Shown: positions 37,910-61,145 of the stretch, one piece after another
How the letters are laid out: each line of letters starts with the position of its first letter
How positions within the stretch are numbered: the stretch's first letter is position 1
DNA from: Ostreococcus lucimarinus
Lineage: Eukaryota
Assembly (NCBI GenBank): GCA_000092065.1
Contig: CP000594.1
DNA length: 64,000 nucleotides
Direction: 5' to 3' (one strand)
Notes under the pieces: generated by a model
Databases searched by the model: none
What the model saw: the letters and a program-made list of their open reading frames with translations, nothing else
Told to the model about the DNA's origin: nothing
Program-made: the position numbers and the translations under genes

Positions 37910-39706
37910 CTATTTCTTCGCGACGACTTGCGCGAAGCTCACTTTGACCTTCTTCGCCGCCGCGGTCTCCGTCCCCGCGTGTAAATCATCGTTGAGCGAG
38001 TCCAATTGCGTGATTGAATCGTCTTCTTGCATTTCTTTGCGTTTGCGAGCCGCCTTCGTATCGTCTCCCAGGGGCAAAGGTTTCTCTTCGGAGATTTTCT
38101 TTTCCTCGTCCTCCGCGCTCGCCGCTTTCTTCTCCTTCTCCGGCGCGTAGATGTCCTTGACGTAGCCGTCGATTTCTTCTTTCACGAAGCTCGGTAAATC
38201 CTTGCGCTTCAAATATTTGACGTTCGCCTGCATCCCGGGTACCCAGTTCGATTCCCCAGTCGCGCGATCCATCCACGACGTCACAGTCATTTGGAACTGC
38301 TCCACCGCGGGATTCAAGTTGAGCGAAACCTTCTCCTCCTTCTTCTTCAGGCTCGAAGGAAATAACCCCAAGAACAGCGTGACGTGCGAGTTTTCGTCCT
38401 TCTCCGGATCTTTGTACCTCGACGTGCCGGGATGCGCAAGCATTTGCCCTCCCGTGGCGTTTTCGATGCCTTGGATTAAAAGCTTGATTCGCGAGCCGAC
38501 CCAACCTTCCCACTTCTTAAAGTCATCTTCGTTCTTGGCCGAGATGGTAACCATCAAATAATGCTTGTATTTTTCTAAAAAGTTCAACGAACACCACAGC
38601 TGCTCCCACTTCGCGGTGTTTAAAAGAATCATCTTGGTCACTTCCTTGCCGCGCTTGAACTCGGCTTTGAGCACCTCGAGCGTGCTGACGCTCACGTTGA
38701 ACGTAGAGTTTTGCGCCGGATACGCCGGAGTTAAGATTTTCATCAACTGATATCGCTCTGCCTTGTTCACACGCTCGTCCCACACTCGCATCCCGGGTAA
38801 GCCTTCGTCGACGATGGGTACGAGCATCACCGGCGTCGTCCATTGCCACGCCGACCATAGTTGGAAAAAGCTGTACACGAGCATGGAAGGTGCGGCGTTG
38901 GGGTACAACTGACACACGCGCGCTACTAAAATCGCCAGGTTTACGCCACCGAAAAACCCGACGACGTTGCTATACACCCCGCGCCGCTGCGCCCACAGAC
39001 GCAACGTGCGAAGCGCCACTCGAAACGCGTCGTGGTTTGGCACGACGCGCAACAACTGATCCGCCACGCGACAACCATTCAGGGATTTCACCCCTGGGTC
39101 GTCCAAATTCATCATCACCGACGTCTGACACACGTCTAAGTCCTCTGGCACGTGCGTGTACGACGGTAAGCTCGTGTACGCCATATCTATTTCAAAACCT
39201 CTAAACACGAGTTTGATTTCTGGCACGATGGCGTCGCGCACGGGCACGATGCTCTCCGTTCCAGGGTGTTTCCGCATCACGTCATAAAACGACCCTTCGT
39301 AATCATTCTCATCCCATCCAAAGAAATCCTCCTCTCGGCTCAGATGTCTCGGCCCGAGGCACAGCGTATCGATATCCGCAGCCGGTCCGTGCACGCCCAA
39401 TCTATAGCTCCCAAACGTGTACAAGTTACACGACGGCCGCATATCCTCTGTGATCCCCTTTCGCTCGCTCGCCGCCAGCACCCAGTCTTGCAACAACGCG
39501 TTTATCTCCCCCAGCACCTCCTCGCGTCGCACGCACTCGTCCGCGTCTTCGTACACGTCCTCTTCCCGCAGTTTGTCATCGAGCGCCTTGCTCAACTTTT
39601 CGTCGAACGCCGTCGGCATCTCGTTCGACATCACGCGATTCAGCGCCTCCGCGGACGCCGACTGGGTCATGACCGACGGTGCGGAGGGCGTCTGCGCGCC
39701 GATCAT
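37910..39706 (-). CDS. canonical nuclear poly(A) polymerase (PAP, Pol-beta nucleotidyltransferase superfamily)
   Basis: Verified ATG at 39706. N-terminal region KLSKALDDKLREEDVYEDADECVRREEVLGEINALLQDWV. Catalytic segment FGSYRLGVHGPAADIDTLCLGPRH carries the metal-binding aspartates. Central and RNA-binding domains follow, then a Lys/Glu-rich C-terminus. Confidence 0.85.
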   Translation of the reverse strand: MIGAQTPSAPSVMTQSASAEALNRVMSNEMPTAFDEKLSKALDDKLREEDVYEDADECVRREEVLGEINALLQDWVLAASERKGITEDMRPSCNLYTFGSYRLGVHGPAADIDTLCLGPRHLSREEDFFGWDENDYEGSFYDVMRKHPGTESIVPVRDAIVPEIKLVFRGFEIDMAYTSLPSYTHVPEDLDVCQTSVMMNLDDPGVKSLNGCRVADQLLRVVPNHDAFRVALRTLRLWAQRRGVYSNVVGFFGGVNLAILVARVCQLYPNAAPSMLVYSFFQLWSAWQWTTPVMLVPIVDEGLPGMRVWDERVNKAERYQLMKILTPAYPAQNSTFNVSVSTLEVLKAEFKRGKEVTKMILLNTAKWEQLWCSLNFLEKYKHYLMVTISAKNEDDFKKWEGWVGSRIKLLIQGIENATGGQMLAHPGTSRYKDPEKDENSHVTLFLGLFPSSLKKKEEKVSLNLNPAVEQFQMTVTSWMDRATGESNWVPGMQANVKYLKRKDLPSFVKEEIDGYVKDIYAPEKEKKAASAEDEEKKISEEKPLPLGDDTKAARKRKEMQEDDSITQLDSLNDDLHAGTETAAAKKVKVSFAQVVAKK

Positions 39707-40724: not shown

Positions 40725-40768
40725 ACATGTAGAAAATTTGTTGTTATACATATACTTGTACACTTTGA

Positions 40769-41035
40769 TTACTGTACGCGGGCCATCCAGTTTGCAGGCG
40801 GTGACCAGGTTGTCACCGCCGCATGGTGATCTCTCTGGTCTTTAGGTGGGCAAGGCCCCATAGCCAAAAACTTCAAAGAACTACTATATTCCAGCGTGTC
40901 CAGTGCTTCCACATTGCGAAGCTTTTCGTCATCTCTTTTTTCCACCAACACGCAGAATTCATTTACTTCCACTGCCCAGGCCTGGCCGGTGTTTCTTTCT
41001 ATTTTGTACATGCCGGCTCTGCATTGGAGGCCCAT
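40769..41035 (-). CDS. second small tandem ORF (~87 aa) starting MGLQC, same strand and frame as the MGCCLS ORF and separated from it by an in-frame TAG
   Basis: The ATG encoding MGLQCRAG lies ~27 nt downstream of the upstream ORF's stop. Coding status uncertain. Confidence 0.25.
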   Translation of the reverse strand: MGLQCRAGMYKIERNTGQAWAVEVNEFCVLVEKRDDEKLRNVEALDTLEYSSSLKFLAMGPCPPKDQRDHHAAVTTWSPPANWMARVQ

Positions 41036-41389: not shown

Positions 41390-41595
41390 GATGCGCTGTG
41401 TTTCTTTTCTCGGCCACGCGCGCGTTTTCTTTTGTCCGCCTCTCTCTCGCGCGCGCGTCGTCGAGTGATGCTGGTGCCGCTCGTGACGGATTTAAGGGCG
41501 TGAACACCCGCGTGTAAAAGCAGACACTTTATATAGCACTTTGGGAGGTTAAAAGGTGTCCCAAAGTCTCATACATTGGCCTATACTTTGGCAAC

Positions 41596-41637
41596 ATCCC
41601 GCGCTTTGATTACTGTACAGTAATCAAAGCGCGGGAT
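41596..41637. repeat. perfect 42-bp palindrome (atcccgcgctttgattactgt / acagtaatcaaagcgcgggat)
   Basis: The reverse complement of the right 21 nt equals the left 21 nt exactly. Related motif copies are at 40761..40788 (ctttgattactgtacgcgggccatcc) and 61487..61516 (tacagtaatctatacccgggata). Confidence 0.9.
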
Positions 41638-41730
41638 ACCGTGGAATGGACTCGGAAAAACCTCTAGAAGTTCGGCGGCGCCATTCCGCGCGCGATCTCA
41701 GCGGGCGAGCGTGATCACCAACGTGGACCG

Positions 41731-43800
41731 ATGAGGCACCGATCGTACCGTGTATGCAATGGACGCACGCTCGCACTCATCGCGCTCGTCGTGCTTGTCG
41801 CACGCACGCAGCGCGTCTTCGCTTCGCCGACCGACGAGCGAAGATTCTGGACGCCCACTGTCGTCGCCGTGGACGACGGCGTCGGTTCGAAGATCCGACG
41901 CATGGGAAACGATGTGGAGAAATCGAAGTCTTTCGTGTTTGAGAACACGGTAGCGGAATCGCTGACAAGAGATGGCGTCGTCGCGGTGCGAGTGCGAGGC
42001 TTGAACGAAGCAAAGACACAGAGCGCAAAACTCTTCATGGATTGCGCGCGGGTTACGGATAATGTTGCAGTAGAAGAGTACGACGATGGATCCAGGCGCG
42101 TGACGCTCGCCACGACGACGAAGCAGAGGGGGAGTGGTTTCGGGGAACCCACGTCCAAAGCATGTAAGAAGTTCGAGGTCACGACGAAAATGCTTCGCGC
42201 GAAAGTTTCTGTGGCCGAACAAGCAATCACGGACGTGTTTCAGAGCAAGTTTTCAGATCTGAGTGAATTTGCGAACGGGGTACTGATGCAGGGAGAGAAC
42301 GGCGAGACCTATAAAACTTTCTCGGAAGTATTGAAAGACTGCGAGCACCTTGAACATTTTCACGGCTACACGATTTCACCACAACAAAAATTGAAGAATA
42401 GTAAAGTGCGGACGATCGAAGAGCACACGGATCAAGGTCTACTCATCGCATTCGTCCCGGCCATAATTGTCGATGCAGTGACGGGAAGGCGCGATAAGTT
42501 TTCCTCAACCGGCGATTTTTATATGACGCTTCCTGGGCATCGCAAGGTGCTTCTCCATTTTGACACGCTTCCAGACGATGTCGTTATTTTTATGCTGGGT
42601 CAAGCAATCGAGCAACAAATCACTCCCAAACTTGCAAACGGCCTTGAGCTTCACGCTGTACCACACGCAATGGATATGCCCAATCTTAAATCTAATCAGT
42701 TCAGATTTTGGTATGGGCGAATGTTCCTCCCACCTGAGAATGCCTTGGACGAAAGCCATGGTCTCTCTTTTGGGACAGTGCGCGCTAACATCATCGAAGA
42801 TTTCGCACGTGGGCTGAAGACATCCGTGGGATGTGGTCGTGAGCTCCTCTCCGTGGCAGGGAGCGGTTCATGCGCTAGCAACCAGATATGGTGCTGGATG
42901 CGATGCATGAATCACTCAGCGCCGGCGAGCAATCCACTCACATGCAGGACGGGTCATAGTGTCCAATGTTTGAGCCAAAGACTGGAAGTCTGGACGGATG
43001 CCGACAGTCATGGTGATTATAATCCTGGATGCACCGACGAGACCAACGAGACAAAGCCCGTCACCGATCCACCGACCATCCCAGCTCGAGCAGCCTCTTG
43101 TACAGATGGAAACGCCTGGGAAACTTTTTTGAACCACTCCGAATATGAAAACAGCTTGGAGCTGTTACAAGATAAGTTATATTTACTCTGGACTGTTCAA
43201 AATGGTAAGTTAAAAGCCCGAGTTGCCTTCAATGGCAAGATTGGTTGGTTTGCTCTCGGCATCAAAAACCTAGGAGGGAAACACAACGGGATGAACGGGG
43301 CGAACATCGTCATGGGCGTCCACGACCCTCATCCAATGGGTCACGACAGCAATTTCGGTTCTCCTTATGTTGGAAAGAGCAGTGCGAAACAATACAAAAT
43401 CCACGATCATTCTTCTGCTTTTCGACATTGGAATGACACTGCTGACGTTGCCTCACCCTTCGTGAGTTCGACGACGTTCAATTCATGTTTCAGTTGTATG
43501 CGTTTCGAGACGGCCTCGATACGGGGCGAGGCTCTGAATCTCACCTCTGGTATTAATGAACTCATCTGGGCTGCTCATGATGGCACTTACCTCAAAGGCT
43601 ACCATGAAGTACAAGGATTCGATCGGAGAGATGCACGCGGGCATCTCACGCTTGACCTGACGCGAAATTACGGTCGTGTAACGTGCGGCTTCTCAAGAGG
43701 CTGGGCTGCGGCGAGTCAAACATGTGCTTTTTCGGCAGCAAGCACTCCTTCAGCGATAGTTTCTATATCCATTGCTGTCATTGCAATCCTCGTTATGTGA
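41731..43800 (+). CDS. secreted or GPI-anchored-type protein with a 2OG-Fe(II) oxygenase-like core followed by a DOMON-like domain
   Basis: Verified ATG. Signal peptide is MRHRSYRVCNGRTLALIALVVLVARTQRVFA. EEHTDQGLLIAFVPA...GDFYMTLPGHRKVLLHFDTLPDDVVIFMLGQAIEQ...LELHAVPH resembles the HxD...H double-stranded beta-helix motif. The C-terminal LYLLWTVQNGKLKARVAFNGKIGWFALGI...ANIVMG...ELIWAAHDG resembles DOMON. A hydrophobic C-terminus (AIVSISIAVIAILVM) follows a Ser/Ala-rich linker. Confidence 0.5.
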   Translation: MRHRSYRVCNGRTLALIALVVLVARTQRVFASPTDERRFWTPTVVAVDDGVGSKIRRMGNDVEKSKSFVFENTVAESLTRDGVVAVRVRGLNEAKTQSAKLFMDCARVTDNVAVEEYDDGSRRVTLATTTKQRGSGFGEPTSKACKKFEVTTKMLRAKVSVAEQAITDVFQSKFSDLSEFANGVLMQGENGETYKTFSEVLKDCEHLEHFHGYTISPQQKLKNSKVRTIEEHTDQGLLIAFVPAIIVDAVTGRRDKFSSTGDFYMTLPGHRKVLLHFDTLPDDVVIFMLGQAIEQQITPKLANGLELHAVPHAMDMPNLKSNQFRFWYGRMFLPPENALDESHGLSFGTVRANIIEDFARGLKTSVGCGRELLSVAGSGSCASNQIWCWMRCMNHSAPASNPLTCRTGHSVQCLSQRLEVWTDADSHGDYNPGCTDETNETKPVTDPPTIPARAASCTDGNAWETFLNHSEYENSLELLQDKLYLLWTVQNGKLKARVAFNGKIGWFALGIKNLGGKHNGMNGANIVMGVHDPHPMGHDSNFGSPYVGKSSAKQYKIHDHSSAFRHWNDTADVASPFVSSTTFNSCFSCMRFETASIRGEALNLTSGINELIWAAHDGTYLKGYHEVQGFDRRDARGHLTLDLTRNYGRVTCGFSRGWAAASQTCAFSAASTPSAIVSISIAVIAILVM

Positions 43801-44142
43801 CGCGGAAGTTTGCATTCTTCACGATCTTTCAATCGACACCCGAAACAGTCTGAGCACGCACCGACAGTCACGCCGTTGTAGGTCCCGGCGTGATAACAGA
43901 ACTCTTCGCTTGATGCGAGTGCGTTCGTGCTCGCGTACGCACTCGAAACGGTGCAGTCGGCGTGAGAGAAACACACGTCGCCCGGGTCCGCGCGCGCGGT
44001 GTGCGCGACGGCGAGAGCGAAAACGAACGGCACGAGGAGGTTCTGAAACATTTTTGGTGTGGGTTTAGCTCGCGAAAAAGTTTCAGCGAGGCTTGACGTG
44101 CGCCGCAAAGTGAGGTTCGGAGATCCGGAGATCCGCCGGTTG

Positions 44143-44310
44143 ACGCCCCGCGGGGCGTGTGTGCCAGCCCGTAGGGTTTAGGGGATCGGACATATGGAGC
44201 CTCACTATTAAGACACACTGTCATATATATTAATGGATTTATGACAGTGTGTCTTAATAGTGAGGCTCCATATGTCCGACCGCGGGCACACATCCCCGCG
44301 GGGCGCCAGC
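44143..44310. repeat. MITE-like hairpin element. Perfect 38-bp inverted repeat (44187..44224 / 44241..44278) with a 16-nt AT loop, nested in a longer imperfect palindrome and flanked by ccccgcggggcg on both sides
   Basis: cggacatatggagcctcactattaagacacactgtcat / atgacagtgtgtcttaatagtgaggctccatatgtccg are exact reverse complements. Outer arms gccccgcggggcgtgtgtgccagcccg / cgcgggcacacatccccgcggggcg are imperfectly complementary. Confidence 0.55.
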
Positions 44311-44640
44311 AGGGTCAGGTCGCAATTTTGCGTTTTCCCGCTCAGCCTTCACTAGAAACGTGTCTAAACCGGCCACTTTTTAAATCTTGTTTTTTGCTAG
44401 GTTTTTACTGTCTCCGGGTCTCGGAGGAATCGCGTGGAGTGACCGGTTATGGGTTTAGTGGTTGGAGGTCCTGTGAGGAACTTTCTCTCCGTCACTTTTT
44501 TTCCATTTTTGAAAAAAAAAACGTCACATGTAAACTTTATAAATAAACCTATAACCTATAACCTATAACCTTGAAGGTTGAAATTTCTTAAGACCCGGGG
44601 TCCGCTGTTAAGGGGGGTCGGAACGCACAGAGAAATCGGG

Positions 44641-45180
44641 CTCGTCGTCCTGTGTATCAGCAGTCCTGTAGTAGGAAGTCATTTTTTGCTGTTTTGGGCA
44701 TCCCTTGCGTTCAGAGATTCCATTCTGAAGAAATCTTAAGCGAGGGCACCAAAAACTCAAGGTCTCAACGGTCGCACGCTTCAGACTAGTTACATCTTCT
44801 GTACCTCCAAGCAGCGAAGTGCTCCTGTGTGTCAGGTTTGTCTCACCAAACACCGAGATCTTCGAGAAGACGAACACGTTCCGCTGAGAGTTTGCACGTG
44901 CACCTGTCTTCCTTTGCCTGATTTGTGAGCCATCACCCCAGATTTGAATGTGGCGTATCTTATCGCGACACTCTCGCTTAAGATCTCTTCAGAATGGAAT
45001 CTCTGAACGCAAGCCGTGGATGTATTAAACTGTGAACGAGGCTAGTCATGGTTCGATTTTTTGGATTACAAGTGTAGGTCTACTTTTACGTTTCGTGGAC
45101 TCCGCTTGAGTCGGCCGATGTCACCACGTCAGGTGTTTCGAGTGCACTAGAGACGTGACCGCCGATACACAGGACGTCGA
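44641..45180. repeat. nested inverted-repeat structure: inner arms 44703..44746 vs 44966..45013 (44 bp, 1 mismatch), outer arms 44641..44660 vs 45161..45180
   Basis: Inner arm cccttgcgttcagagattccattctgaagaaatcttaagcgaggg pairs with its reverse complement ctctcgcttaagatctcttcagaatggaatctctgaacgcaagcc. Outer arm ctcgtcgtcctgtgtatcag pairs with gatacacaggacgtcgagc. Confidence 0.6.
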
Positions 45181-45837
45181 GCTCGGCGTGCCTGATTTCA
45201 CGACTCGGTGACCATGGTTTGAAACCGAAATGACCATCGGCTTCAGGCCCAGGCGCGGCCGCAATGCTACTTTAAACTTAATATATTTTTTTTGAAAAAA
45301 GAGTAGTAAGAGTAATAAAAATAAACTTTTTTTTTGAGTTGGGGCACCCCAACATGATAAAACCGCACATCGCGGCGAGCCATGCGCGACCATCAATTTG
45401 ATGTCATGTCTAGTCAGGCTCTCGTGGTAAAAACGTAAGATGTGCTTATTACAGCATATGCCAATTGCGCAGTAAATCTCGAAGGACGACATCAAACATA
45501 TCACAGAGCGCGCGCTTCACACCGTACAACACCATCTAAGGTACTTTCGACCGACGTTTTAGGCAATTTTGACTCGCCGACTGGTCTTTTCCAGTTGTGA
45601 CGTCAGATTCGATACGATACTGGGTTACGATGCGTTGAGTTGGACTGTAGAGGCCTGTACCCTTACATGCACATCTTCCATGGAGCGCTGGAGAAAAGGC
45701 ATTGTTGCATAATTATTGTCAAAATATAGATATTTTAATTTGACGCCACCATTATTAACTTTAAAATCAAGCCAGATCGCGACGACACTGAACATTTGAA
45801 TGTGTATTCACACTTGAGAGACACTGGTTTCGGCAAC

Positions 45838-46821
45838 TCACGATCGAGTACCGAAGACAAAATTAGCGCACTTTTTTCTATCATCTGCAGAATGCGAGTT
45901 TGGCGCATTTTTTACTGCGTCGCAGTGTTTCTTAGCCGCTTTGCACTGTTTGGAGCAGACATGCGGACATGCTGCCACCCAGGTTGGGTTGGAACATAGA
46001 TGGCGCCTGCCTTCCGGCTTGCCGCAGCCCCGCGGAATCGATTCACAGGGAGCCATGTTGGGTAGATCAGGCGTTTCCCAGACGGTACCAGAGATACCAT
46101 CGAAACCTGGGCACGTGTAATCGTCACTCAGAGTACAGCCAGTCGCCGCCGAGCCTTGACAAGATCTTTTCCAACCACCCAAACGCCTATGGCCCTTTGT
46201 ACGCTTTTGGCAAGTACCCGTCGACACGTTGTACGCTTGTTTAGCTTCCTTAGTATCAAACGAGTGACACACGCATGAATCAATCAGTGGCAAAGCGCGG
46301 ACCTGTACGGCCGGCTCATGCTCGCACGCCCAACACGAGTGTCCTCCAATACTGATCCCGAACCGCTGGCGCATCTCTGACGCGCAGACTTTCGCGCGTT
46401 CCTCCTCGTTGAGCTCCATTCCCGCGCAGGCACAAGCGCACTGTGCACGCGACCACTCCACTCCATCTGTCGCACCAACATAACCTCTCATATCATTCTC
46501 CAGTTGGGCGTGTTGGTCGTGGCATATTCTCGCACACGCCGCGAATGTCTTCATAGATTCTGGTAGTCCGTAGTGCACCGCGGCCTGGGACACCGCGTCG
46601 TCATCCATGAGTTTCCACCCCGTGACCCCCGAGCTCACTGGCCGCCGCCGCCGCCCGAGCTCACTTGACGGTGCATCCAAATCACCGCCCGCATCGCCTG
46701 GGTCCGTCGCCACCGCCGTGAACGGCGCATCCGCGTCAACGCCCGCGGCGACGTTCAGCGCCGCGGCCCCCACGAACAGCGCCAACGTCAAAGGTGACAC
46801 ACATTGCCTTCGAAACCCCAT
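45838..46821 (-). CDS. hypothetical secreted Cys-rich protein (signal peptide, ~30 Cys), possibly with a C-terminal ShK-like Cys knot
   Basis: First ATG at 46821 (MGFRRQCVSPLTLALFVGAAALNVAAGVDA, signal-peptide-like). The track's 46962 start is TTG. Many spaced Cys (CACACAGMELNEEERAKVCASEMRQRFG...HLCSNPTWVAACPHVCSKQCKAAKKHCD). Confidence 0.4.
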   Translation of the reverse strand: MGFRRQCVSPLTLALFVGAAALNVAAGVDADAPFTAVATDPGDAGGDLDAPSSELGRRRRPVSSGVTGWKLMDDDAVSQAAVHYGLPESMKTFAACARICHDQHAQLENDMRGYVGATDGVEWSRAQCACACAGMELNEEERAKVCASEMRQRFGISIGGHSCWACEHEPAVQVRALPLIDSCVCHSFDTKEAKQAYNVSTGTCQKRTKGHRRLGGWKRSCQGSAATGCTLSDDYTCPGFDGISGTVWETPDLPNMAPCESIPRGCGKPEGRRHLCSNPTWVAACPHVCSKQCKAAKKHCDAVKNAPNSHSADDRKKCANFVFGTRS

Positions 46822-47111
46822 CCCGCGCGCGCGATCTGCTTTTTCGTCCACGCGGCGTCCACTCGCGAACGCGCGGATACCGTTCGCTCTCTCAGCGCCC
46901 TCCACGTCCGATCGGTTCGGAAGTGACGCGCGCGCGCAGAATAGTTTCGCGTCACAACGCAATTATTCATTCCCGTGTTGATTTTATTCTATTCCAGGGG
47001 GTATGGGTATAGAGTTTACAGTGCCTTCGTACGAGATATTTCCCAACACCCTTTAGTACCAAAACCTAATTGCGTATCTTCCCTCACTTTCCGACGTCAC
47101 GCGCGCACGCG

Positions 47112-50100
47112 ATGACGTCGGCGACGCCGAAACGACGGCGCGCGCGCAGATTTTTGTATGCGTTCGGAGGACCGACACTCTTATTTAACCTCATGCGCGT
47201 GTTTGCCATGTCCGGGCTCGTGGCAACAATTACAATGTCAACAGCCGCGGGCGCCGCCCACGGTGGAGGTGCGAGCATGGACGAGGGACCGGCGCAAATG
47301 CATTATATGCCTGATCGATTTCGCAGCCTCGCGGGCGGCGGCTGGCTTACTATCTCATCGAGAGACGTGCACAAGAGCCTGATGCCCATGCCTGGGATGC
47401 GCGGTGGCGGGGAAGGCGCGAATGAGTCAGCAGTAAGTGGCAGCGCGATGAAGGACGAGGTGAAGATCGATCTGGCCCACGGTGACCCAGACGGTGAGCG
47501 ATCGTGCGATCTCGTGCATTACAAGTCATCCTCGAATGAGTTGGTGTGTTCACCACGTGCGGTGGATTGCTGTTTGGACGGACTCACGGCGCAGGAGCTC
47601 GCCAGCGTAAGCGATGGGTGCCCGTCGGTGAGACCAGAGCTGAACGTCGAGGTCAACGGTCAGCGATTGACGTGGGGCAGCGCTGGTAGAAATGGAAGGG
47701 ACACGCTCACGGACGAAAGTCTCAAAGTGAGCCATGGGCAGACGCCGACGATCGTGGCGGTCGAGCCGGCTGAGGTTCGTCCCGGTGAGTTGATCACGGT
47801 GTACGGACGAACGTGCTTTGGCGATGTTTGGAAGAAAGATGAAGATGATGGTTCGTCTCTACGTGATGATCCCGACGCACTGCGAGATCTATTCTCGGTT
47901 GAAGCGAGCGCAAGAGAGGATCCGCGCCAAGAAATTGGATTGGAAAAGTCTCTCTACAAGGTGCTCATCGGTGACCTACCGTGCGAGGTTCGAGATCCAC
48001 TCACAAACAGGTACTACCGATCCGAGCGCGGCGATGGTCCATACACAGCCCACCGGCAAACAGAGTGTGGACCCGTTAACGGTTGGTTTCAGTGCCGTGT
48101 ACCCCAAGACATCGATTCCGGTCTTCATCTACTTCATTACGAGACGTACACCAGAGGCAATGCTGTGATCCTGTCTGAGGCGCTCAGATGGAATGCATCG
48201 GACGCGTCCAAGGGCTACGTGCTGTCAGTGGTTGATGATAAGTCGGAAGATGAAGATCCACCGCGTGTTTATAACATAACGCAGCTCTCGAAGGATGAGT
48301 CCAAACAGCGACTCCTTGTTGAGGGTGCGTCTCTTGATGCGCCAAATATCGTCGTCGAGCTTGACGGGGAGCGCTGTGGTGGAAAAAAGGTTGTGTCCAG
48401 ATCTGGCATCGAGGTTGAATGCTCAGGTTCAGCTGGAGCGAGCTCGCAGTATCACTACGGCCCCCCCGCGTGGCTGCGTGAAGACTGGGTGTTCAAGGAC
48501 AAGAATAATAAGTTTGTCGGTGGCAAAGCGTGGTCTAACGCTCTCCACGTTTTGAAGCAGCGTGGAGAAAGGTACAACCCTCTCGCCGACGAAGTCATGG
48601 ACGCTTTAAGCTCGGCATTGGCAACGAATGGCATTGTCCGCGGGTACAAGATCGAGAAAGTTCAACAGTATCTCACGAGCCCATCGGTTGGATCACCATA
48701 TGTTGAGGCAACTAGCGGCATGAAAGCGGCGCACGCCGGACTCATCCGTCACCGAAGGATACGGAATGCTGTGTTTGAACGTGTAAGCGGAGTCATCACC
48801 GCCAAAGCAAACGGGCGAATGCGCGTGGCGATCGCCAATGCGGCGGGCAATAACATGGTGCTTCGTGTGCGACATGTTTCCGACAACTTAAATGTATTCA
48901 AACCTTGGTTGTTAGTTTCCAAATTTTGCGGCACCAGATACAGCAGACAAAACATTTATCGATACGGCTTTTCACAGTGGTTCAGTGTTCGTGGTAACGA
49001 AAAATACTATATGGAATTTCTGATGAACTTGGACCCCAGATACTTGCACAATTTCGGGGGATTCGATGTTAAGATGGAATTTTCCTACGACGCGGGTAAT
49101 CCTGCGGGATCAATTGGGCAACTTACGCACACGACAACGCCTCACGTGCCCAAACGAGCGCATGGTGGCGATTACGTCGTGCGCTTTAGCGGCGCTTCGA
49201 AAACTGCGATCAGATTCGCTCATAATGCAACTTCTTCAAGAAGCAATTTTGAGTGGAAACTCTTCAGTGGCGGCAAGACCATCGAGTTCAATACGAAGAA
49301 TTGGTTGCATGCACGCGAACACGTGCGGAAAGTTAGAGACGCTCTGCGATGGGCTAACTGTACCGCGCTGCCTGAAGACTCAAAGATGTGGGACGCGGAC
49401 TCGACCCATTCTTCGCACCCATTCGACGTCGAGAATCGATGGCTCATGGTGCGTGATACGCAGACCTTCAAAGAGCCCACCACAGATTGGAACTTCATAT
49501 GGCAACGTCGCATGGGCGGATTCAGAGGCGCGTCGATCGACTGGAGTACCTCGTACTGTTCGACACACAGTCAAAAATTTGATTTGTCGTCACTACCCCC
49601 AGGAAGAGTCATCACTCCTTCTTCTCATTTCGACGTACCTGCATCTTCTCGTGCGACGACGAATAAGTTTCTGAACTTTGCCTACAAAGTCACTCCGGGT
49701 ACGCGAGCGACCTTGTTACTTCGTCTAAAGTACCGAAGCGGTAATCGGGACATATCGACCACGTGCGCGGTTCTCCTCACCCATGAACAAGCGACTGGGA
49801 ACGTGAAGAACTTCGATCACCCAGCGTGTGTGGACCTTCGAAGCGTCTTCAAGGATGATGGAGAGTGGCACTTTATTTCATTCGATTGGCGAACTGCGTT
49901 GGCCGGTGGTGAGTATGCCCCGAGTTATTTGGGCGAGGCTATGTTCCCGCATAAAGTGCAAGTTCAACTCGATGGTATCGGTGTCGGCGCGCAGAGATTC
50001 CTCGGCAAGTGTCCGAATAAACAGCGCTTAGCGGAAATGTATGTCGGTGATGAAGGAAGTGAACTGCGCGGTTACCTCTGGTTGGATAGCGTTTCTGTGA

Positions 50101-53100
50101 CACAGGAACGCTACTCTCCTCAACGAGTCGAGACGCCCTCTGCACAGCTCGGAGGTATGCAAGAAGGCGTTCACGCAATCACAGATATTGAATATTCGGT
50201 CATCAGCCGAAGCGATGGCTCTAAGTGCAAATCGCTGTCGGACTGTGATATCATCGTGAGCCTGCGTCAGGTGAAGAGATGCATTGATGCGCAGTCGCGA
50301 GGCGATTTCAATATTTCGCCGATGGTGATGTCACAGACGAGTCCAAACCCGCAACCCGCGACGGTCTCGTGTGGTCGTCACTATGCAGCGAACTGCTCGA
50401 CTTGTCCGTGGAAGGTGTCCGCGGAAGGTGTCCGTGGAAGGTGGATGGGCTGGAAATATTGCAATGGTGCGTGCGAATGGAGATGGCACGGGCGTATCAA
50501 TGCAGGTGGCACGTGCGTGTCAAAGCCAGCTCCAACTCCTCCGGCAATAACAGTCACGGATCGTACTTCTTCAACACGTGGAACCGTCACTGCACAGATC
50601 ACAGGGGGGACGATGACGCAATTTTCCACCTCTGCCAATTCATCTGAAGTGCAGGACGCATTACGTCATGTCCTCGGAGCGCACGACGGAGGCTTCGTGG
50701 TGAGTCCAAGCATGGATTTGTTTGATGCGTGCGGTGTGAGCGCTCATCGCATGCGCGTTGCGCATGCGAGCGATCTCGAATCGATCCAAGCGCGGTACAA
50801 AGAAGTCGTCAATGGTGTGCCCCTGGGAATGCTACCGAAATCTTCCCGAGGCCGCACTGCGGAAAATGACGCAGGTCTCCTTAATATAACTGTGAATGTC
50901 TCAGGCGGCCTCGCTGAGATAGTCGCGACAGACGAGTCGAGCGATTTCATCGGTATGGTGCCCCTGGACACGAGAACAGATCTCGATGTGCGCGCCTTGA
51001 TTCGCGGTGGCGACGCCGTGTTGGCGACGGCTGTTGTGACGGATGGCGACACAGTCGTACCATGTTCTGTCTCACCTGACCGTATGTCTGCGACTGGCTT
51101 CAAACAAGTTCCGAACGGGCAGGCATTCGTTGGCGATGCTTCTTGCCACATCATTGTGCCACACGAGGAAGTTGCATCTGACGCGACCGTGCACGCTCCG
51201 ACGGAGTTGAATCAGGATGGTTTTCCCTCACTCGGTGAGTCCGTGAGTCAATCGAGTCCGACAGACCAGAAACGTCGACGGGACGTCGAAACTATCCGTC
51301 GGCGCAGCATGTCAAACTCGCTAAAATTTCCTGGCCATGATACCTGGGCAAAACGAGATCTATCGATGAGTAGATCCGATCTTGGACGATTAACAGTCAC
51401 AGTGGTTGGTTTTGGTGCGCGTGTGCACAACGGCGCCGCGCACCGTAGAGCTGCGAATCACGCGCGGAAACTGTTGAAAACGGAACTCGTCGCGAAGGAT
51501 GCAGGTCAGGGGAGTCTCAACAATACGAAAAGCAAGTATGAATTTCCGGCGGGCGCGGGTCGATTCAGTGATCCATCGACGTGGGGTCCTCGGGGAGTGC
51601 CGGACCAAAACTCGACGGATATGCTCTTTATTCCTGCCGGTTTCAATCTTACTCTGGATGTCGCCGATACGTACTTCCGCGTGTGGGTGATTGAGGGGCA
51701 CCTAAATTTCCAACGGGGCATGAACATCACGATGCAAGCAGAAATGATCGTCATCAACGGCGACGACGCACACTTTAGCATTGGGAGTGAAACACGTCCC
51801 TTTGAAGATCAGGCGAATATCATCATGCACGGTCACTGGCGATCCCTCGGCTTGCCCAAATATGGGGTGAAGTGCATCTCACTGACGAGCGGACGATTAA
51901 CATTCTATGGTCAGCACGTCACGCCTTGGATGGAACTGGCCACTACGGCTTCAGCTAACGCAAACGTTATTTCCGTCAGAAGCAAGGAAGGCAAGACTCC
52001 AGATCTCGCCGGATGGAAACCGGGTGCGAGTATTGTGGTGACGTCAACCTCTTACGGGGACAGGAGATGTCGGCAAAACCGTACAGACGACTGTCAACCC
52101 GAGGAGCGCGTTATTGAATCTGTCACTCCTAGAGGCAACTTTGCGGACATAACTCTCGATCGACCGTTGAAGTATGAACATTTGGGTGAATCCGTGAATG
52201 TGGCGGGAAGCCCCCGCGGGGCTACGATTGAGCGTCGTGCTGAAGTAATGCTTCTCACGAGAAATATCAACGTGCGCGGCACGACTGAACACAATGGGTA
52301 TAAGCTCGTCGGCTTTGGCGCGCACACTATGATGATGTCTGGTCAAATGGTGTTGAAAAATGTTGAATTCGGCCCAAACGTCGGACAGGCCTTCCAACTG
52401 GGTCGGTATGCCATCCACTACCACACGCCCAATGAAAAGATGTTCAAATATGGTTTGACAGCCTCAAATGACCCGAGGATGCAGGGCGCAGACCAGCGCT
52501 TGAGTCGTGTGGAGGGAGTCTCGGTCCACCAATCAAACAACCGTGCGATCGCGGTGCATGGTTGTTATCGACTGAACATCATTAACAACGTCGCGTACAA
52601 CATCTTGGGACATGGGATGTTCGTTGAAGATGGTGTGGAAATGTGGAACCTCTTCAAGGACAACGTTGTTTCTCTAGTGCATCGCTCTTTCTCTCTTTTG
52701 AACACTGATCAAACACCTGCAGCGTTTTGGATATCGAACGCTAACAATTTCTTCATCGGTAATCGAGTGTCATCGAGTAATCATCATGGATATTGGTTTG
52801 ACCCACCAGGAGGACCTACCGGACCGTCGTCGCGAACGCTCACGGGGCCTTTGGAAATCCAAAAATTAAGCACTCGGAAGGTACCGCTCGGCCAGTTTGA
52901 AAATAACAGAGCCCACTCGAATGGCCACTCCGGACTTTGGATTGATCAAATAAACACGGTCTTGCAGCAAGGCGGCAGGCTCAGAATGTACATGGTCGGT
53001 ACCCACGTATGGAACAATGGAATCAACGGTTTCGGAATGATTACCGGCGTTGGGCATCTACAGATTGTGAATACGTTTGCCATGGGCAACGGGATTGACA

Positions 53101-56100
53101 TCATGTATATCAAGTCGACTGGTGCGACGTGGGCGATGCCGACGAATGGTTGGTCCGGTAACTTGGTGTACAACGCCACCCTTCGCGGTGACCCGAAACG
53201 CAATACCCAGGCAATCGGCTGTCCGCACGGCGGATGGGTAACATTTAACGATATCCTCATTAGTGGCTATCAAAGTAGGTTGCCCCCAATACACCACTGC
53301 GCTGTGTGTCCGGGTTTCAAAGGCGGCATGGAAGTTCGTTTCATGAATATGAAATTCGTCGACAGTGATACAAGGCGGCTCCGCGGTGGTTCAACATCTC
53401 GACCGCGCGTATTCTGGAACGGGTACAACTCCAACCTTTTGCTCGACGTGGATGGGACCCTGAGTGGATCGCCAGGTCCACGATGGGCGCATTCAGTCAA
53501 GGGCGCCAGTGATGATCCCAGGAACCGGCCGACGGGTCATTTTCCGCCAGAACACTGCACCCTCAATGATCACATCGGAGGTGTTGTTTGCGACGCCAAC
53601 ACTGTGTCGTTGCGAGAGGTGCAGTGGCGCCGTATCAAGCCCATGACCCTTATACCCATGGCGATGCAGACAGCACCTGATCAAAATGCAGGGCAAGTGA
53701 ACTTTTATCATTACGACCATATCGAGCGACGTTTCAATTGGCGTACGACATTGGTTATGGTTAAAAGTCCGAACGCGAAGCCATACATCCATAACTTTAC
53801 GTTTAAGTTTAAAACATGGCAAATTGATGACCCGGACGCTTGGTACATGGAGGTCCGTGAGCTTCAGCCCAATGAATGGGCTATAATGCGATTCCCCACA
53901 CTCCGCAATCCGTGGCGTTGGAACTTGAATTCAAGAATACCGACGGTCACATTGAATAACTACAATCAAAGTGATTATAGTTTCAATGAGAGCAAGGCCA
54001 TCACCACCACGAGCAACGAATGGCTGAGTTGGAAAAATCACAAGTTCGGCGACCACACATACCTACCCGTTGTGGAGACAAGGGATGTTAATGTAAAGCC
54101 AGATCCAGGGCTGCTCGATATCATGATATCTGGCAAGCGCGAACAAGGATGGACACAATCGTACGCCCTCGGTGCCAACTATGATGGCGCGCGTGAAGAT
54201 ATGCCCGTCTGCACCACTTCATGCGGAAGCTCGGCAAAGTCAACATGTGGCATGAAACGCTACAACTGCAGACCGGGCGACAAGAAACGATGTTTGCCGA
54301 TGGAAAAGCCTGCAAACTGCTTCGACAATCGACCTATACCCGAGGTAGATCCCGAGCCTAAAACTTTTTCCTGGTGCGACTCAAACGAAGTTTGGTCTCC
54401 GCCGGCATTCGGGGATGACGTCATGATCAAGGCTGGTTGGACGGTCATCTTAGATGAAACCTGTCTGGTGACCAACATAACTAGACACGTGGATTTATAT
54501 GGGTCCCTGTTGCTTCGTGATCCAGGCGCTGGTAAAACCATCAAGTTCCGAGCGCAGACCATCCACGTCGCGGCTGGGATTGGATACCTCGAAGCTGGTG
54601 ACCAGGATGATCCGATATCGAATGGCGACGTTCGTATCGAGCTTTATGGGAACAGATTTTCTAACGCTCGAATGGGCTACGGTATGGAGACAAAGTACAT
54701 CGCCGTTCTCGGACACCTCAGCCTCGTCGGAAAGGCGAGCGTGGAGCAAACGTGGTCGACGCTTAGAAGCGATGCGCCCGCGGGAAGCAGTACAATTGAA
54801 ACGACAGCCTGTGGCGGTTGGAATACTGGCGACACGCTCATGATTGGTGGCGCTATGCACAATTGGACCGGGATCAAGCATGCTTGGTTTTTGAGCGCGG
54901 AGCGCTGTGATATTTCCTCCATAGCAGTTGCGAGCGAAGGTTGCGTCATACGGTGTACTTCCAGCTTCAACTACACGCACTCAGGCCCGGCCCAAAAGCA
55001 CGAGGTCAGTTTTGGTGGAATGCCAGTGACTCTCATGCATAGGCGCTCTCCAGGTGGGCGCGTGCAGGTAGTTGGCATGGAAGACAAAAACAAGGCACTG
55101 GCAGAGCAGCACTATGGTGCTGTTATTACTATCCTGAAACCGAAAAAGAAAGGCTATGACGCAAAATTGGCTAAGAGATTCAAGATAGAACTCAAGACGC
55201 CCGAGCGCATGCAAGCGGCAACTGAAAGCATGAAACATGATCCCCCGCCTGAATGCCACCGCAGACAAGGTTCGGCTGTGATCGTCAATGTCAACTTTGC
55301 GCATTGCGGTCAGCGGCACTCTAGTCGCGCGTGTGTTTCTTTTGCCGCCGGTATTGGCGCTGAGTATCGAGCTACGTTCGCAGAAACGACATCGATGGCA
55401 CTCGTTGCGAACAACACATTTGCGGACGCCTACAATTTTGCCGTGAGCGCAGCAGGAGATGGAATTATTATAGAGAATAACGCCATCGCACAAACCTATC
55501 ACGGTGGATTCGAGGTCTCTGGTGCGAACAACACAATGTCTAATAACGCAGCTGTTCGATTATTCGACGATGTTAGTGATTACTTTCACGACATTGGGTC
55601 GGTTGGTTTCAAGTTGTCGGGATCAGGGAAATGGTATACTAACGTCGTCGCCTCCGTGCAGTACACTGGGTTTAAAATTCCTGGATATCCGTGCGAAATG
55701 ATGACTCCAGACGTGGAGGATGAGGGTTTAGACGTTCGCGCTGTGACCACCGTTCCCGCCGAACCTACAATGCGTGACCTTCGCGCGTATGGTGGCATGG
55801 TAGGCGTGAATCTGCGGGGCGGGCGTACTCGGATGGTCACACGTGAACCGGTGGAGGCCTACGCGCCGCTCGAGTGTCGCCAATGGAGCGACTTCGAGAT
55901 TCGTTCAATGGTTTGGTACGGCGTAACCACGTTTGGTCAGGGAAAAACGTCTATTGTGTTGAAAAACTTTAATATTTGGGACACCGGACTTGGTTTCGCG
56001 CTGTGGATGGTCAACGGTGGCTCAGCCGCAGGTTCGAGCAGCGAGCGAGGGCATTTCGCAGAAATCAGTGACACGACGATAATCGGTTCTGCAAGTCGAT

Positions 56101-58946: not shown

Positions 58947-59029
58947 ACAGTACAATTTTGTCATACCTACAGTCGCAAGCAAAAACGCCACATTCAAATT
59001 TGGGCGTCCCGCTTAAGATTTCGGTACCC

Positions 59030-59072
59030 TCGCTTAAGATTTCTTCAGAATGGAATCTCTGAACGCAAGGCG
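59030..59072 (+). repeat. third copy of the cgcttaagatttcttcagaatggaatctctgaacgcaag repeat also found at 44703..44746 (inverted) and 44966..45013. Adjacent 58990..59012 matches a further piece of the 44.9-kb region in inverse orientation
   Basis: ccctcgcttaagatttcttcagaatggaatctctgaacgcaagg matches 44966..45013 at ~95%. gccacattcaaattt is the reverse complement of aaatttgaatgtggc at ~44941. Confidence 0.6.
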
Positions 59073-59544
59073 TGAAATCACTTAGCCATCCTGCCCGAGT
59101 CTGACGAAAGTAGCAAAGTAGCACTTTTTGCACGCCTCCCAAAGGTGGCCCCTGGGGAAATTATTTATTTTGTGGAGTGGTGAAAAATAAAAATTCCCAC
59201 TGGATACCTTCTGGGACACTGCTTTTTTGCTACTTTTGCTACTTTTTCGACGAGATCGGGGTACTGCAAAGCACACGGCGAAGACGGGTGGCCGATGATC
59301 CGTGTGCGCGTGTCGCCTTTGATGGGTCGCTCCCGTTCATGACTCAAGAGTTGTCGCGCGACCTCGCGCGTGCACGAGGGTGCCACGTTTTAGGTACCAG
59401 AGGTGCCCATTTCTTCGTGGTAAGATGGTCCCTCGTGTATCACGCCGCTCCCCTTTAAGCATGAAAAGTTGTGTCCAATATATTGCGCGCGATGTCCGAT
59501 GGTACATCATACAATATCATAGTTAAGCCACACTTATCATACGA

Positions 59545-59705
59545 CGGTGGCGGTCCACCTGTCGGTCGTCACAGAAAAGTTGCGTCTGAGACTGAGGATG
59601 TGTGTTGCTCATGTGTCTTATATATACCTCATACATACATATATTAACATTTACAACGATATGTATGGGGTGCCCAGCCCATCCGCGCGGCGTGGCTTCT
59701 GCCGG
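59545..59705. repeat. copy A of a ~150-bp dispersed repeat (ggcgg.ccacctgtcggt...gaaaagttgcg...gaggatg...ctcat.aatacatatatta...ggtgcccagcccatccgcgcgg)
   Basis: Alignable by eye to 60450..60613 at ~75-80% identity with indels. Both copies end in the identical 22-mer ggtgcccagcccatccgcgcgg. Confidence 0.6.
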
Positions 59706-60024
59706 TTTTTGCCATTCGAACCATGAGAAACTACAACTCTATAATAACTTAAACTTAAAATTTTTTTAAGTTTAAGTACCTACACGTTAGTAATTTTGAA
59801 AATTTTTGTGACCCGTGACTCCCAAGCAAAAAGTCGCGCGTTGCTCCAGTGGCTGGGCACCCAAACATGGACCCAGACTCATGAATCATGAACCGTGAAT
59901 AGCCGAGTCCCAGGATTGACGAATCATGACTCGTATCAATCCGCCGCTCCCGAATGCGTGTGCCCCGTGTGACGAAATCGTCTCCGGGATCCGGAGGAAA
60001 AAACCTCCAGGAGGAAAACCTAAA

Positions 60025-60116
60025 GCGCGCGATCGACGTCTCCGAACGTCAAAGCCCGCCGCCTCCCTCCGCGCGCGATCGACGTCTCCGAACGTCAAAG
60101 CCCGCCGCCTCCCTCT
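60025..60116 (+). repeat. 2 x 46-bp tandem duplication (gcgcgatcgacgtctccgaacgtcaaagcccgccgcctccctc)
   Basis: Read directly. The copies differ at 1-2 positions. Confidence 0.8.
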
Positions 60117-60449
60117 GCGCGTGCTCGCGCGCCCGAGGAACGGTCAGCGTTTCCGCTCCGGCGTCCAGTAGGAGTTCCCGTGAAACGGACCAAAAGGAGG
60201 CTTTGTTGCGTGTTTGCCAGTTTTCGAGGACGTTGGAGTGAGAGGGCGCTTGCCGAGATGCCCTCCATCTTGATCTCGCGCGAAAACTGTTTCATGTTCC
60301 GCCGGGCCATCGTCGCCGATCGCGTCGCCGTGCATACTGTCCACGGGCTTAAAAAGGTCGCGGAGGTCAACGTTATCACTCATGGTCATTTTTTGACGTT
60401 TTGTTTCTGTCGCGCCCGACATCTTGCGTCGGAGTGGGTCAATGGCGAC

Positions 60450-60613
60450 GGCGGCGGCGGCCCACCTGTCGGTGTTTACGGAAAAGTTGCGGCTCGAAAT
60501 GAGGATGGCGTGGCCCATGTTTCTTATAGATACCTCATGAATACATATATTACAAGTTATAATGCTATTAATATATAATTGATTGGATGGGTGCCCAGCC
60601 CATCCGCGCGGGC
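60450..60613. repeat. copy B of the ~150-bp dispersed repeat, lying just 3' of the GIY-YIG ORF
   Basis: See copy A (59545..59705). Confidence 0.6.
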
Positions 60614-60644
60614 TGTATCTAGCTAGCTATGTATGTGCGACGGA

Positions 60645-61145
60645 TTAAAAACAGCACCAAATATTTTTTAAACAGCACCAACATTTTTTATAGTCGGTTT
60701 CATCGGTTTCCTCGATGGTCGAGCCTAGTTCCAGTTCACCGAGGAGCTGCTCGTCTTCTTCATGCAACCACGGTTCGTCCGCGCGTCCAGGCACAACGTT
60801 CGGACACTGGTTCACAAAATGGCCCAACTGACCACACCTGAAGCATCGATCACCCGCACCTCGCATCATGAGTTCGATAATCTCGAGGTGCGATCTCGGG
60901 AGAACGATCTGACTGAACGTCCCACCGCGTACGTTCTCAACGCCGTGTTCGGCCATGAGTCGTAACACGTGCTTGTCCTCGTCAAATGGTCCACATTCCT
61001 CGATGAACAGTCGACGGTACGGTTTGTATTTTTTCGTCCACGCGGCACCCATGCCGCGAAAATGGTCGTCGATCCTCGACCTGTTGTCGCACCGCCCCAC
61101 GTAGTATTTGCCCTGCGCACACGCGAGGCCGTATATCAGTGACAT
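60645..61145 (-). CDS. GIY-YIG nuclease-domain protein fused to a CCHC zinc knuckle and an acidic, Cys/Trp-rich tail (166 aa). Candidate selfish or mobile-element nuclease
   Basis: Verified ATG at 61145. N-terminus MSLIYGLACAQGKYYVGRCDNRSRIDDHFRG...AAWTKKYKPYRRLFIEE...HVLRLMAEHGVENVRGGTF carries the GIY...YYVG, conserved R, and catalytic E / N-V-R-G-G elements of GIY-YIG nucleases. CFRCGQLGHFVNQCP is a CX2CX4HX4C zinc knuckle. C-terminus is ETDETDYKKCWCCLKNIWCCF. The ORF lies in a ~50% GC repeat-flanked island. Confidence 0.55.
   Translation of the reverse strand: MSLIYGLACAQGKYYVGRCDNRSRIDDHFRGMGAAWTKKYKPYRRLFIEECGPFDEDKHVLRLMAEHGVENVRGGTFSQIVLPRSHLEIIELMMRGAGDRCFRCGQLGHFVNQCPNVVPGRADEPWLHEEDEQLLGELELGSTIEETDETDYKKCWCCLKNIWCCF

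Follow-up and report, generated by a model that had tools for sequence, protein, structure and literature searches.

The window, by which we mean the whole stretch of 64,000 nt of Ostreococcus lucimarinus DNA (contig CP000594.1) that was analysed, is divided into two parts of different character. Up to about 41.6 kb it carries housekeeping genes, namely those for VPS13, a cofilin-domain protein, RRP12 and poly(A) polymerase, and exactly the same poly(A) polymerase protein is encoded on many marine metagenome contigs. Past about 41.6 kb the GC content drops to 47-56%, and the genes encode large secreted or surface-type proteins, including a G8/CEMIP beta-helix protein of 3958 aa. This low-GC, strain-variable island of surface-protein genes begins at a TA-bounded junction. 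A protein of 689 aa encoded just beyond the junction was rejected as a candidate transposase. Its signal peptide and the hydrophobic stretch at its C-terminus suggest that it is a surface protein. The protein had no match in Pfam or PDB; by eye it resembles a DOMON domain.

Downstream of the gene for this protein lies a hairpin, the coordinates of which are collected in Table 1. The initial annotation had described a perfect stem of 38 bp with a loop of 16 nt; the perfect hairpin is real, although the stem measures 40 bp (40/40) and the loop 14 nt. With one mismatch allowed, the stem extends to 43 bp and 8 nt separate the arms. The 40-mer of the stem occurs once per strand with 0 mismatches, and shuffles of the window gave 0 chance matches. 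The longer imperfect palindrome that had been noticed around the stem was also recovered: it spans 44136-44317, and its outer inverted repeat (44136-44155 and 44294-44313) is 85% complementary. Folding as RNA, which had been proposed as a check, gave -140.8 kcal/mol for a stretch of 191 nt (z = -17.2), and folding of the same stretch as DNA gave -80.8 kcal/mol (z = -18.2); in either case 0/200 shuffles equalled the value. As had been annotated, CCCCGCGGGGCG stands on both sides of the stem, at 44146-44157 and 44294-44305. It is also found on the minus strand at 44144-44155, and it is part of a 14-mer, CGCCCCGCGGGGCG, that is its own reverse complement. A sequence of about 20 nt, AGCCCGTAGGGTTTAGGGGA, is present in the left arm and missing from the right arm. 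Comparison with the consensus of the repeat unit described below indicates that the loop is derived from the conserved CATATATTAAT...ATTTATG block of the left unit.

Table 1. Coordinates of the features at and around the hairpin (window numbering)
Feature	Position	Strand	Basis or remark
Poly(A) polymerase	37910-39706	-	Same 90% cluster as two Ostreococcus lucimarinus CCE9901 proteins
Remnant CTTTGATTACTG, then TA, of another second-family unit	40763-40774	+	
Second-family unit ending ...ATCCCGCGCTTTGATTACTG, then TA	41490-41617	+	TA at 41616-41617
Inverted terminal motif CAGTAATCAAAGCGCGGGATACCGTGGAATGG	41618-41650	+	20/20 palindrome with unit 41490-41617
Upstream module GACGTGCGCCGCAAAGTGAGGTTCGGAGATCCGGAGATCCGCCGG	44091-44135	+	Found before family units elsewhere as well
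Left arm, GC-rich outer part of unit	44136-44185	+	Unit profile (nhmmer)
Self-complementary CGCCCCGCGGGGCG within left arm	44144-44157		
Telomere-type TAGGGTTTAGGGG within left arm	44172-44184		
Left stem, 40 nt	44186-44225	+	First 20 nt are the family signature TCGGACATATGGAGCCTCAC
AT-rich 14-nt loop TATATTAATGGATT	44226-44239	none	Comparison with unit consensus
Right stem, exact reverse complement of left stem	44240-44279	-	
Right arm, outer part	44280-44317	-	CCCCGCGGGGCG at 44294-44305
Full-length unit ending ...GGGGGTAAATTACAG, then TA	61257-61479	+	nhmmer positions 28-201, E = 1.4e-50
TA of full-length unit	61478-61479		
Inverted partner end CAGTAATCTATACCCGGGATAGCGCGGGCTGAATAG..., adjoining full-length unit across TA	61480-61537	-	

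The repeat family and its TA-bounded ends

A metagenome collection was scanned once with the 20-mer TCGGACATATGGAGCCTCAC, which is common to the two copies in the window. The scan returned 37 loci (denoted here by L numbers) in at least 19 different upstream contexts, and with the second copy in the window this bears out the earlier suggestion of a dispersed family, to which the window hairpin belongs. Three of the loci (L007, L009 and L031) are the same locus as that of the window, and the remaining ones lie elsewhere. The genes next to the units are ordinary nuclear genes, such as those for TCP-1, a CDC48-like ATPase, Vps52, PAPS reductase and poly(A) polymerase. The 20-mer had no match among viral contigs, nor did megablast of 43000-46000 against a phage collection give any; the palindrome core GATTACWGTACWGTAATC occurs in three viral contigs, and these were set aside as unrelated low-GC chance matches. 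The family is apparently undescribed in the literature searched.

A unit of this family is about 200 nt long and consists of GC-rich, modular outer parts and a conserved core of 96 nt (exactly 96 nt in 19 of 21 distinct cores, the range being 94-96 nt). When the copies are aligned on the 20-mer, the outer part reads ...(C)GTTGGCGCCCCGCGGGTGTGTGTGCCAGCCC..., with the canonical form ...GTTGGCGCCCCGCGGGTGTGTGTGCC..., and is followed either by two telomere-type TTTAGGG-like repeats or by a GC-rich module of 60-100 nt. The end of the core reads ...CATATATTAAT...ATTTATGG.TATCATCCCGCG....CCCGGGGGTAAATTAC(T/A)G, and then TA. The sequence that precedes GTTGGCGCC is one of at least four alternative modules. 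The module at 44091-44135 in the window recurs at L005, L015, L017/L018/L026 and L025 (L025 348-396 matches window 44139-44091 with 95.9% identity, and L005, L015 and L017/L018/L026 match window 44091-44163). Thus, the outer side of the unit has no fixed end, and CCCCGCGGGG, which is conserved in nearly every copy at unrelated loci, is an internal part of it. The relative at 61.3 kb had been called a diverged half-copy; the relationship is genuine, but this copy is a unit of full length, and neither arm of the hairpin is as complete. The neighbouring ORF with GIY-YIG and CCHC was considered as a part of the repeat and rejected, as only L032 has a fragment of it in common.

In contrast to the outer side, the inner end is sharp: canonical units all stop at ATTACWG (W = T/A) followed by TA. 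The terminal consensus of 30 nt over 25 distinct junctions, read from the end, is TA followed by CAGTAATYTACCCCCGGGATRKCGCGGGAT. This end is common to at least three sub-families with unrelated interiors. It is also found upstream of the gene for the 689-aa protein, where the CAGTAATCAAAGCGCGGGATACCGTGGAATGG end (41618) sits 113 nt before the gene, and it is absent from the window hairpin. Beyond the TA, an inverted CAGTAAT... end follows in about 20 of 26 hairpin-family ends, producing a palindrome centred on TA. The inverted partner can be a unit of the same family (L006, L016, L017, L020 and L023), a second-family unit (CAGTAATCAAAGCGCGGGAT-TTGCCAAAGTATAGGCC...; window 41490-41617, L004 and L034) or a third-family unit (...GGGATGAATAGCATAAA...GGGGACCGGACCGGCGGGACG...; L015, L021, L024, L027 and L038), and some partners consist of just 11-21 nt of end sequence, after which unrelated DNA follows. 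The DNA beyond the TA is unrelated in L005, L011, L014 and L029, as it is after the second-family end in L040-L045. The conserved sharp boundary is therefore the centre of the canonical palindromes, and it is just this centre that is missing from the window hairpin.

No intact family element was ever seen with a TA on each side; a TA at both ends was seen only around mini remnants of 10-23 nt (L007, L027, L028/L030 and L051) and around an unrelated MITE of 140 bp. The mini remnants are partly explicable as tandem duplications of 12 or 25 nt, and they were rejected as clean excision footprints, since the difference between L024 and L027 is equally well a 12-nt tandem duplication. A regular-expression search of about 50 loci and the window found no complete copy running from a left end to a right end within 4 kb; the sole such pair of ends in the window, at 41618 and 61477, is 19.9 kb apart.

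Structural variation at the locus

The poly(A) polymerase of the window is encoded unchanged on six contigs (L040-L045) that stem from different studies, and collinearity between these contigs and the window runs from about 28 kb to exactly 41617. There a different, separate element is found, the TA-flanked MITE of 140 bp at TA 41616/7, which is another TA-targeting element in these relatives, and the window sequence then resumes at about 44558 (88.9% identity). These contigs lack 41618 to about 44550, so that the gene for the 689-aa protein, a small secreted ORF and the hairpin are all missing. The missing segment, at 2.9 kb, is larger than the hairpin alone. In the comparison of orthologous positions that had been suggested, the hairpin is thus absent from the corresponding position in all six, and the segment around it shows presence/absence polymorphism.

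The same TA is a breakpoint in other haplotypes. L007 is 99.96% identical to window 41610-53559 (12 kb) and diverges at TA 41616/7, to the left of which it has a hairpin-family unit in place of the second-family unit. A hairpin-family unit is also found at this TA in L004, L019 and L034; a simple inversion of 41618-61477 is a weak explanation of these three, as the unit is 85.7% identical to that of the window and the interior differs. L051 matches 59608-61480 with 99.95% identity, and past TA 61478/9 its DNA is different; L049, L050 and L052 keep the arrangement of the window there. Some breakpoints lie away from the ends, at 43834/5 (L001, L002 and L009), at 44693 (L028 and L030) and at 40762, where the window has a deletion of 59 nt with a GTACA filler relative to L004, L034, L040 and L042. 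Instability is thus a general feature of the region, in which the TA positions serve as breakpoints again and again and with precision. The contigs are independent assemblies (k of 119-141) and the arrangements are replicated, so assembly chimeras at a palindrome of 20-40 nt are unlikely.

Origin of the hairpin and alternative readings

Against a unit profile of 201 positions, the final position of which is the TA, the left arm (nhmmer 44130-44244) corresponds to positions 46-164 and the right arm (44317-44224) to positions 48-159. Both arms lack about 40 terminal nt, the terminus included, and for this reason the hairpin can be regarded as a head-to-head doublet from which the centre has been deleted. 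Relative to the consensus, the left arm is preserved as far as ...CATATATATTAATGGATTTATG and the right arm only as far as ...GTCATA, and a TATG microhomology is common to both sides of the deletion junction. A second, imperfect hairpin of the centre-deleted type is present in L039, with 28 perfect bp near the centre and arms diverging outward. The two arms in the window are identical at 40/40 positions, whereas the nearest non-allelic copy reaches at most 33/40, 20 of these positions being fixed by the search pattern, and the arms of other head-to-head pairs are 41-94% identical. The outer parts of the two window arms differ by indels. That the arms are closest to each other only near the centre argues for recent local copying or conversion rather than for two fresh insertions, and the recent formation that had been proposed for the perfect stem is plausible in this respect.

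The best reading, to which we assign a probability of about one in two, is that the hairpin is a relic of two inverted, head-to-head copies of a dispersed repeat of about 200 nt that is specific to Ostreococcus-like picoalgae, and that the repeat belongs to a TA-flanked, CAGT-ended family of the Tc1/mariner-like kind. The centre of the palindrome, which carried both element termini, would have been deleted from the window copy, either through an asymmetric deletion mediated by the TATG microhomology or through a fold-back template switch. The 40 perfect bp would then be a trace of recent copying or arm-to-arm conversion rather than a sign of function. A hairpin without termini should no longer move, and the window copy is probably immobile; today it would be at most a cruciform-prone and recombination-prone spot or a leftover divergent promoter.

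The affiliation with transposons depends on the ends. A TA-flanked end beginning with CAGT is a hallmark of Tc1/pogo-type transposons, and the termini of Tc1, Tc3, Sleeping Beauty and pogo all begin with 5'-CAGT; the combination of TA and a CAGT end is characteristic of Tc1/mariner-type DNA transposons, which move by cut-and-paste and target TA. The occurrence of the sharp CAGT/TA end in several families, the dispersal and the precise breakpoints at TA together argue that the units are transposon ends on which an end-specific enzyme acts. They may be transposon ends or end-derived repeats mobilised by a transposase encoded elsewhere. By analogy with other systems, the ends of different copies may perhaps be used jointly in 'reversed-ends' or alternative transposition, which would yield solo ends, new head-to-head pairings, and indels or inversions with breakpoints at TA. 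In O. tauri, Tc1/Mariner elements have been annotated by EDTA (bioRxiv 10.1101/2025.04.21.649811).

Among about 30 ORFs neighbouring the units, a Pfam search found no DDE transposase or recombinase; these ORFs carry housekeeping and surface-protein domains instead. In place of a fixed interior, the unit has on its outer side a patchwork of modules that alternate between copies. Like the failure to find a transposase or a complete two-ended copy among the sequences searched, this counts against a conventional transposon. A Helitron, recognised by 5'-TC, 3'-CTRR, insertion between A and T and a 3' subterminal hairpin, was considered and rejected, as the ends CAGTAAT... and ...GGCGCCAAC fit neither 5'-TC nor 3'-CTRR.

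The main rival of the transposon reading is a possible, if rather unlikely, one: the unit would be a directional promoter, or 5'-flank module, of secreted and membrane-protein genes that has spread by segmental duplication and recombination and not by transposition. Head-to-head pairs would be bidirectional promoters with an AT-rich, TATA-like centre, ATATATTAAT, and the window hairpin a compacted divergent promoter. Solo and head-to-head units whose outer side is turned toward the 5' end of a gene are also what a directional promoter module would be expected to produce. In about 12 of the 19 contexts a plausible gene, directed away from the unit, begins 100-320 nt past the outer end, a count that is rough, being based on ORFs with no control. 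Both window copies are so placed, one before a secreted ORF (ATG 44052) and the other before the GIY-YIG ORF (ATG 61145). Several of the genes are paralogues with common N-termini and common upstream modules (MMSTREKK..., MYDSVERGAADE..., MSTVAMGV...), and the units are arranged only solo or head-to-head, never tail-to-tail, as tandem and divergent gene pairs would give. A promoter module leaves unexplained, however, why haplotypes that are 99.95-99.96% identical on one side of the TA become unrelated precisely past it, and why a 30-nt CAGT... end is common to three families with unrelated interiors; moreover, the 800 nt next to the hairpin's right arm contain no gene. The promoter reading is compatible with the transposon reading, as a transposon end can carry a promoter.

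A reading that we consider improbable regards the TA-centred palindrome (...GATTACTGTACAGTAATC...) as the core site of a recombinase or hairpin-resolving enzyme, such as a Crypton-type tyrosine recombinase or a protelomerase-like enzyme, that exchanges gene cassettes; the units would be the arms of the site and the window hairpin a dead site without a core. This could account for the mixing of arms of different families at one junction across haplotypes (four partners at 41616/7) and for the rare variants that partner arms have in common at L018, L025, L032, L051 and window 41617. Solo ends are followed by TAC in 5/7 cases, so the common core may exceed TA. On the other hand, ends also adjoin DNA with no recognisable half-site (L005, L011, L014 and L029), no recombinase gene was found near any unit among the ORFs scanned, and outside the conserved 7 nt the arms of true partners are only slightly more complementary than those of shuffled pairs (212 versus 192.5 +/- 10, about p = 0.04).

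Is the hairpin an intact MITE or foldback transposon, as was initially proposed? In such a case the 168-bp palindrome would be the element, its outer ends the termini and CCCCGCGGGGCG a target-site duplication. The long, nearly abutting inverted arms and the dispersal of the family agree with this proposal, and its transposon-like, dispersed character stands; its duplication and its outer termini do not, which makes an intact element very improbable. CCCCGCGGGGCG lies within the inverted repeat and is self-complementary. Any such motif, when both arms contain it, gives the appearance of a direct repeat, so that the argument from target-site duplication disappears. Furthermore, CCCCGCGGGGCG is conserved at the same place within nearly every copy, including those at unrelated loci, homology with other loci reaches beyond it to 44091, and the sequence outside 44136/44313 has no duplication. 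As to the termini, the outer side is modular and variable, and the conserved boundary of the family is the inner end, ...ATTACWG followed by TA, which is central in the canonical palindromes and missing here.

It is hardly tenable that the hairpin functions as a structured RNA, for example as the precursor of an siRNA or of a miRNA-like product or as some other RNA of stem-loop form: the fold is very stable and weakly matches three Rfam miRNA models, but the stem is simply two copies of a repeat, and the scores are far below the gathering thresholds (mir-3149, 44.1 bits against 100; mir-4818, 42.8 against 92; mir-568, 28.6 against 75). The Rfam search covered 40-64 kb of the window and gave only these sub-threshold matches, on the hairpin. 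RNAalifold on 21 units gave -2.8 and -2.2 kcal/mol for the two strands with essentially no covariation, and a candidate small palindrome in the variable segment scored no better than shuffles; with neither a conserved fold nor covariation, the selection for structure that had been offered as the second explanation of the perfect stem finds no support. L007, L009 and L031 are about 99.5% identical to the window over the whole flanking 500 nt, which speaks against any constraint specific to the hairpin. These same-locus copies are too similar to the window to reveal a constraint on the stem. Ostreococcus reportedly lacks Dicer and Argonaute.

Significance and comparison with known systems

The hairpin by itself matters little, being a dead palindromic leftover of a repeat. 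The ends of its family are more useful, as they are recurrent and precise breakpoints in a strain-variable island: natural Ostreococcus haplotypes that are at least 99.95% identical switch to unrelated DNA exactly at the TA-bounded ends (41616/7 and 61478/9). The hypervariability of Mamiellales has been ascribed to 'massive rearrangements of small repeats' with no mechanism named (PMC5498103), and the defined end sequence provides a concrete target for searching complete genomes and long-read population data. A more far-reaching idea, which we rate as rather improbable, is that the TA-centred CAGTAAT palindromes are working joints of a cassette-shuffling system, in which an end-specific enzyme, either a transposase in the 'reversed-ends' mode or a recombinase, cuts and re-joins the arms of different loci. 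If so, the low-GC variable islands of Ostreococcus would gain and lose genes for secreted and surface proteins in this way, a joint of this kind that no longer works would survive as the window hairpin, and there would be a molecular handle on the unexplained hypervariability that is linked to virus resistance in Mamiellales.

Several known systems resemble the family in part. Like Tc1/mariner-derived MITEs (Stowaway-like) and Tc1/pogo elements, it has TA at each canonical end, 5'-CAGT termini, several non-coding sub-families with a common end of about 30 nt and copies near genes. It differs from them in that neither a two-ended copy nor a transposase was found here, the ends mostly stand head to head across a single TA, and the window hairpin has lost both termini. 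Foldback elements (Drosophila FB and the plant foldback or 'hairpin' MITEs) likewise have long inverted arms with little sequence between them, arms built of modular sub-repeats, and copies of different sizes; in FB, however, the outer termini are conserved and there is a target-site duplication, whereas here the conserved boundary is central and the outer side varies, with no duplication. The bacterial REPIN/BIME sequences share the organisation as short, intergenic, non-coding units in a compact genome, mainly in the form of hairpin-forming inverted doublets, but they are mobilised by RAYT (HUH) transposases, and the likeness is one of organisation only, with no relationship of sequence or host.

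With regard to mechanism, the reversed-ends transposition of Ac/Ds and the hybrid-element insertion of P belong to other superfamilies with 8-bp duplications and serve as an analogy only. In both, rearrangement breakpoints fall exactly at transposon ends and solo ends arise, and the ends facing each other across the TA resemble the Ac/Ds substrate. For the hairpin itself, the closest parallel is the centre-deleting revision of palindromes, or template switching at quasi-palindromes. Although this is a general DNA-repair phenomenon that involves no element family, and its operation here is deduced from sequence alone, it would be expected to leave the asymmetric loss of a centre at a microhomology of 4 nt, with arms that are perfect near the new centre and diverge outward, as in the window and in L039.

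Strain-variable segment around the hairpin

The hairpin, a centre-deleted head-to-head pair of dispersed repeat units, lies in a 2.9-kb segment (41618 to about 44550) together with a 689-aa surface-type gene and a small secreted ORF. Six related metagenome contigs (L040-L045) are without this segment, and in them a 140-bp element (Table) occupies the exact TA at which the window has 41618 onward. Two TA junctions directly at unit ends are exact points of divergence of near-identical haplotypes, 41616/7 for L007 and L004 and 61478/9 for L051, and an additional junction is found at 43834/5 (L001, L002, L009). An (AACCTAT)n microsatellite at 44546-44571 differs in both copy number and form among the haplotypes (window, L007, L009/L031 and L040).

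Table. Repeats, modules and ORFs in the window and related loci
Feature	Position	Properties
Another inverted-repeat family	44703-44761, 44973-45013, 59012-59070	Arms of 41-59 nt, 93-98% complementarity
140-bp element	L040:7908-8048; equivalent place in L041-L045	27-nt inverted ends (TCCGTATGTATTACTTTCCACGCCCTAAT), TA on both sides
Two plant-type telomere repeats (TTTAGGG-like) in unit	44172-44184; many loci, e.g., L008, L010, L014, L016, L022	
Two more multi-copy modules	59234-59934, 60147-60610	Often near hairpin-family units in metagenome loci
3958-aa ORF	47070-58946	Uninterrupted; G8, CEMIP beta-helix and right-handed beta-helix domains
166-aa ORF	60645-61145, minus strand	Weak N-terminal GIY-YIG domain, CCHC zinc knuckle
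Alanine-rich coding repeat	62136-62516	Periodicity of 12-15 nt; within 643-aa ORF (61874-63805)

Modules and other inverted repeats

In the unit, the TTTAGGG-like repeats separate the core from the GC-rich outer module, and a module of 60-100 nt takes their place in other unit copies. Each of the two further multi-copy modules has an AT-rich ATATATTA block, which is followed by GGTGCCCAGCCCATCCGCGCGG. At 40762-40774, a unit of a second family, which has the same terminal motif and another interior, shows a 59-nt deletion with a 5-nt filler (GTACA) as compared with L004, L034, L040 and L042. As for the other inverted-repeat family, 44704-45013 looks like a 310-bp MITE, and L018 and L036 also carry copies. 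The third arm (59012-59070) is inverted, and thus the 3958-aa ORF is bracketed by a pair.

Genes of the window and their counterparts

The poly(A) polymerase gene (37910-39706) is represented by two O. lucimarinus accessions of identical sequence. The same gene with its upstream repeats is present in L042, where the downstream neighbors are entirely different (Zip, chlorophyll a/b-binding), an arrangement suggesting a segmental duplication of at least 10 kb. A 12-kb region of low GC content (14000-26000; 47-51%, in DNA that is otherwise 57-73% GC) coincides with a single VPS13-like gene of very large size, which is divided among several ORFs (VPS13_N, Vps62, VPS13_C). The 643-aa ORF has no Pfam match. 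The 166-aa GIY-YIG ORF was considered as a part of the repeat and rejected. It is single-copy; an identical protein is encoded on six contigs, and in L032 a fragment of the ORF adjoins a unit in a different orientation. The 3958-aa ORF includes six 36-nt tandem repeats (58123-58401). In L019, with the same flanking repeat modules on both sides, it is replaced by a 748-aa ORF with DUF5906, interpreted here as a primase-helicase ATPase domain of the D5 type.
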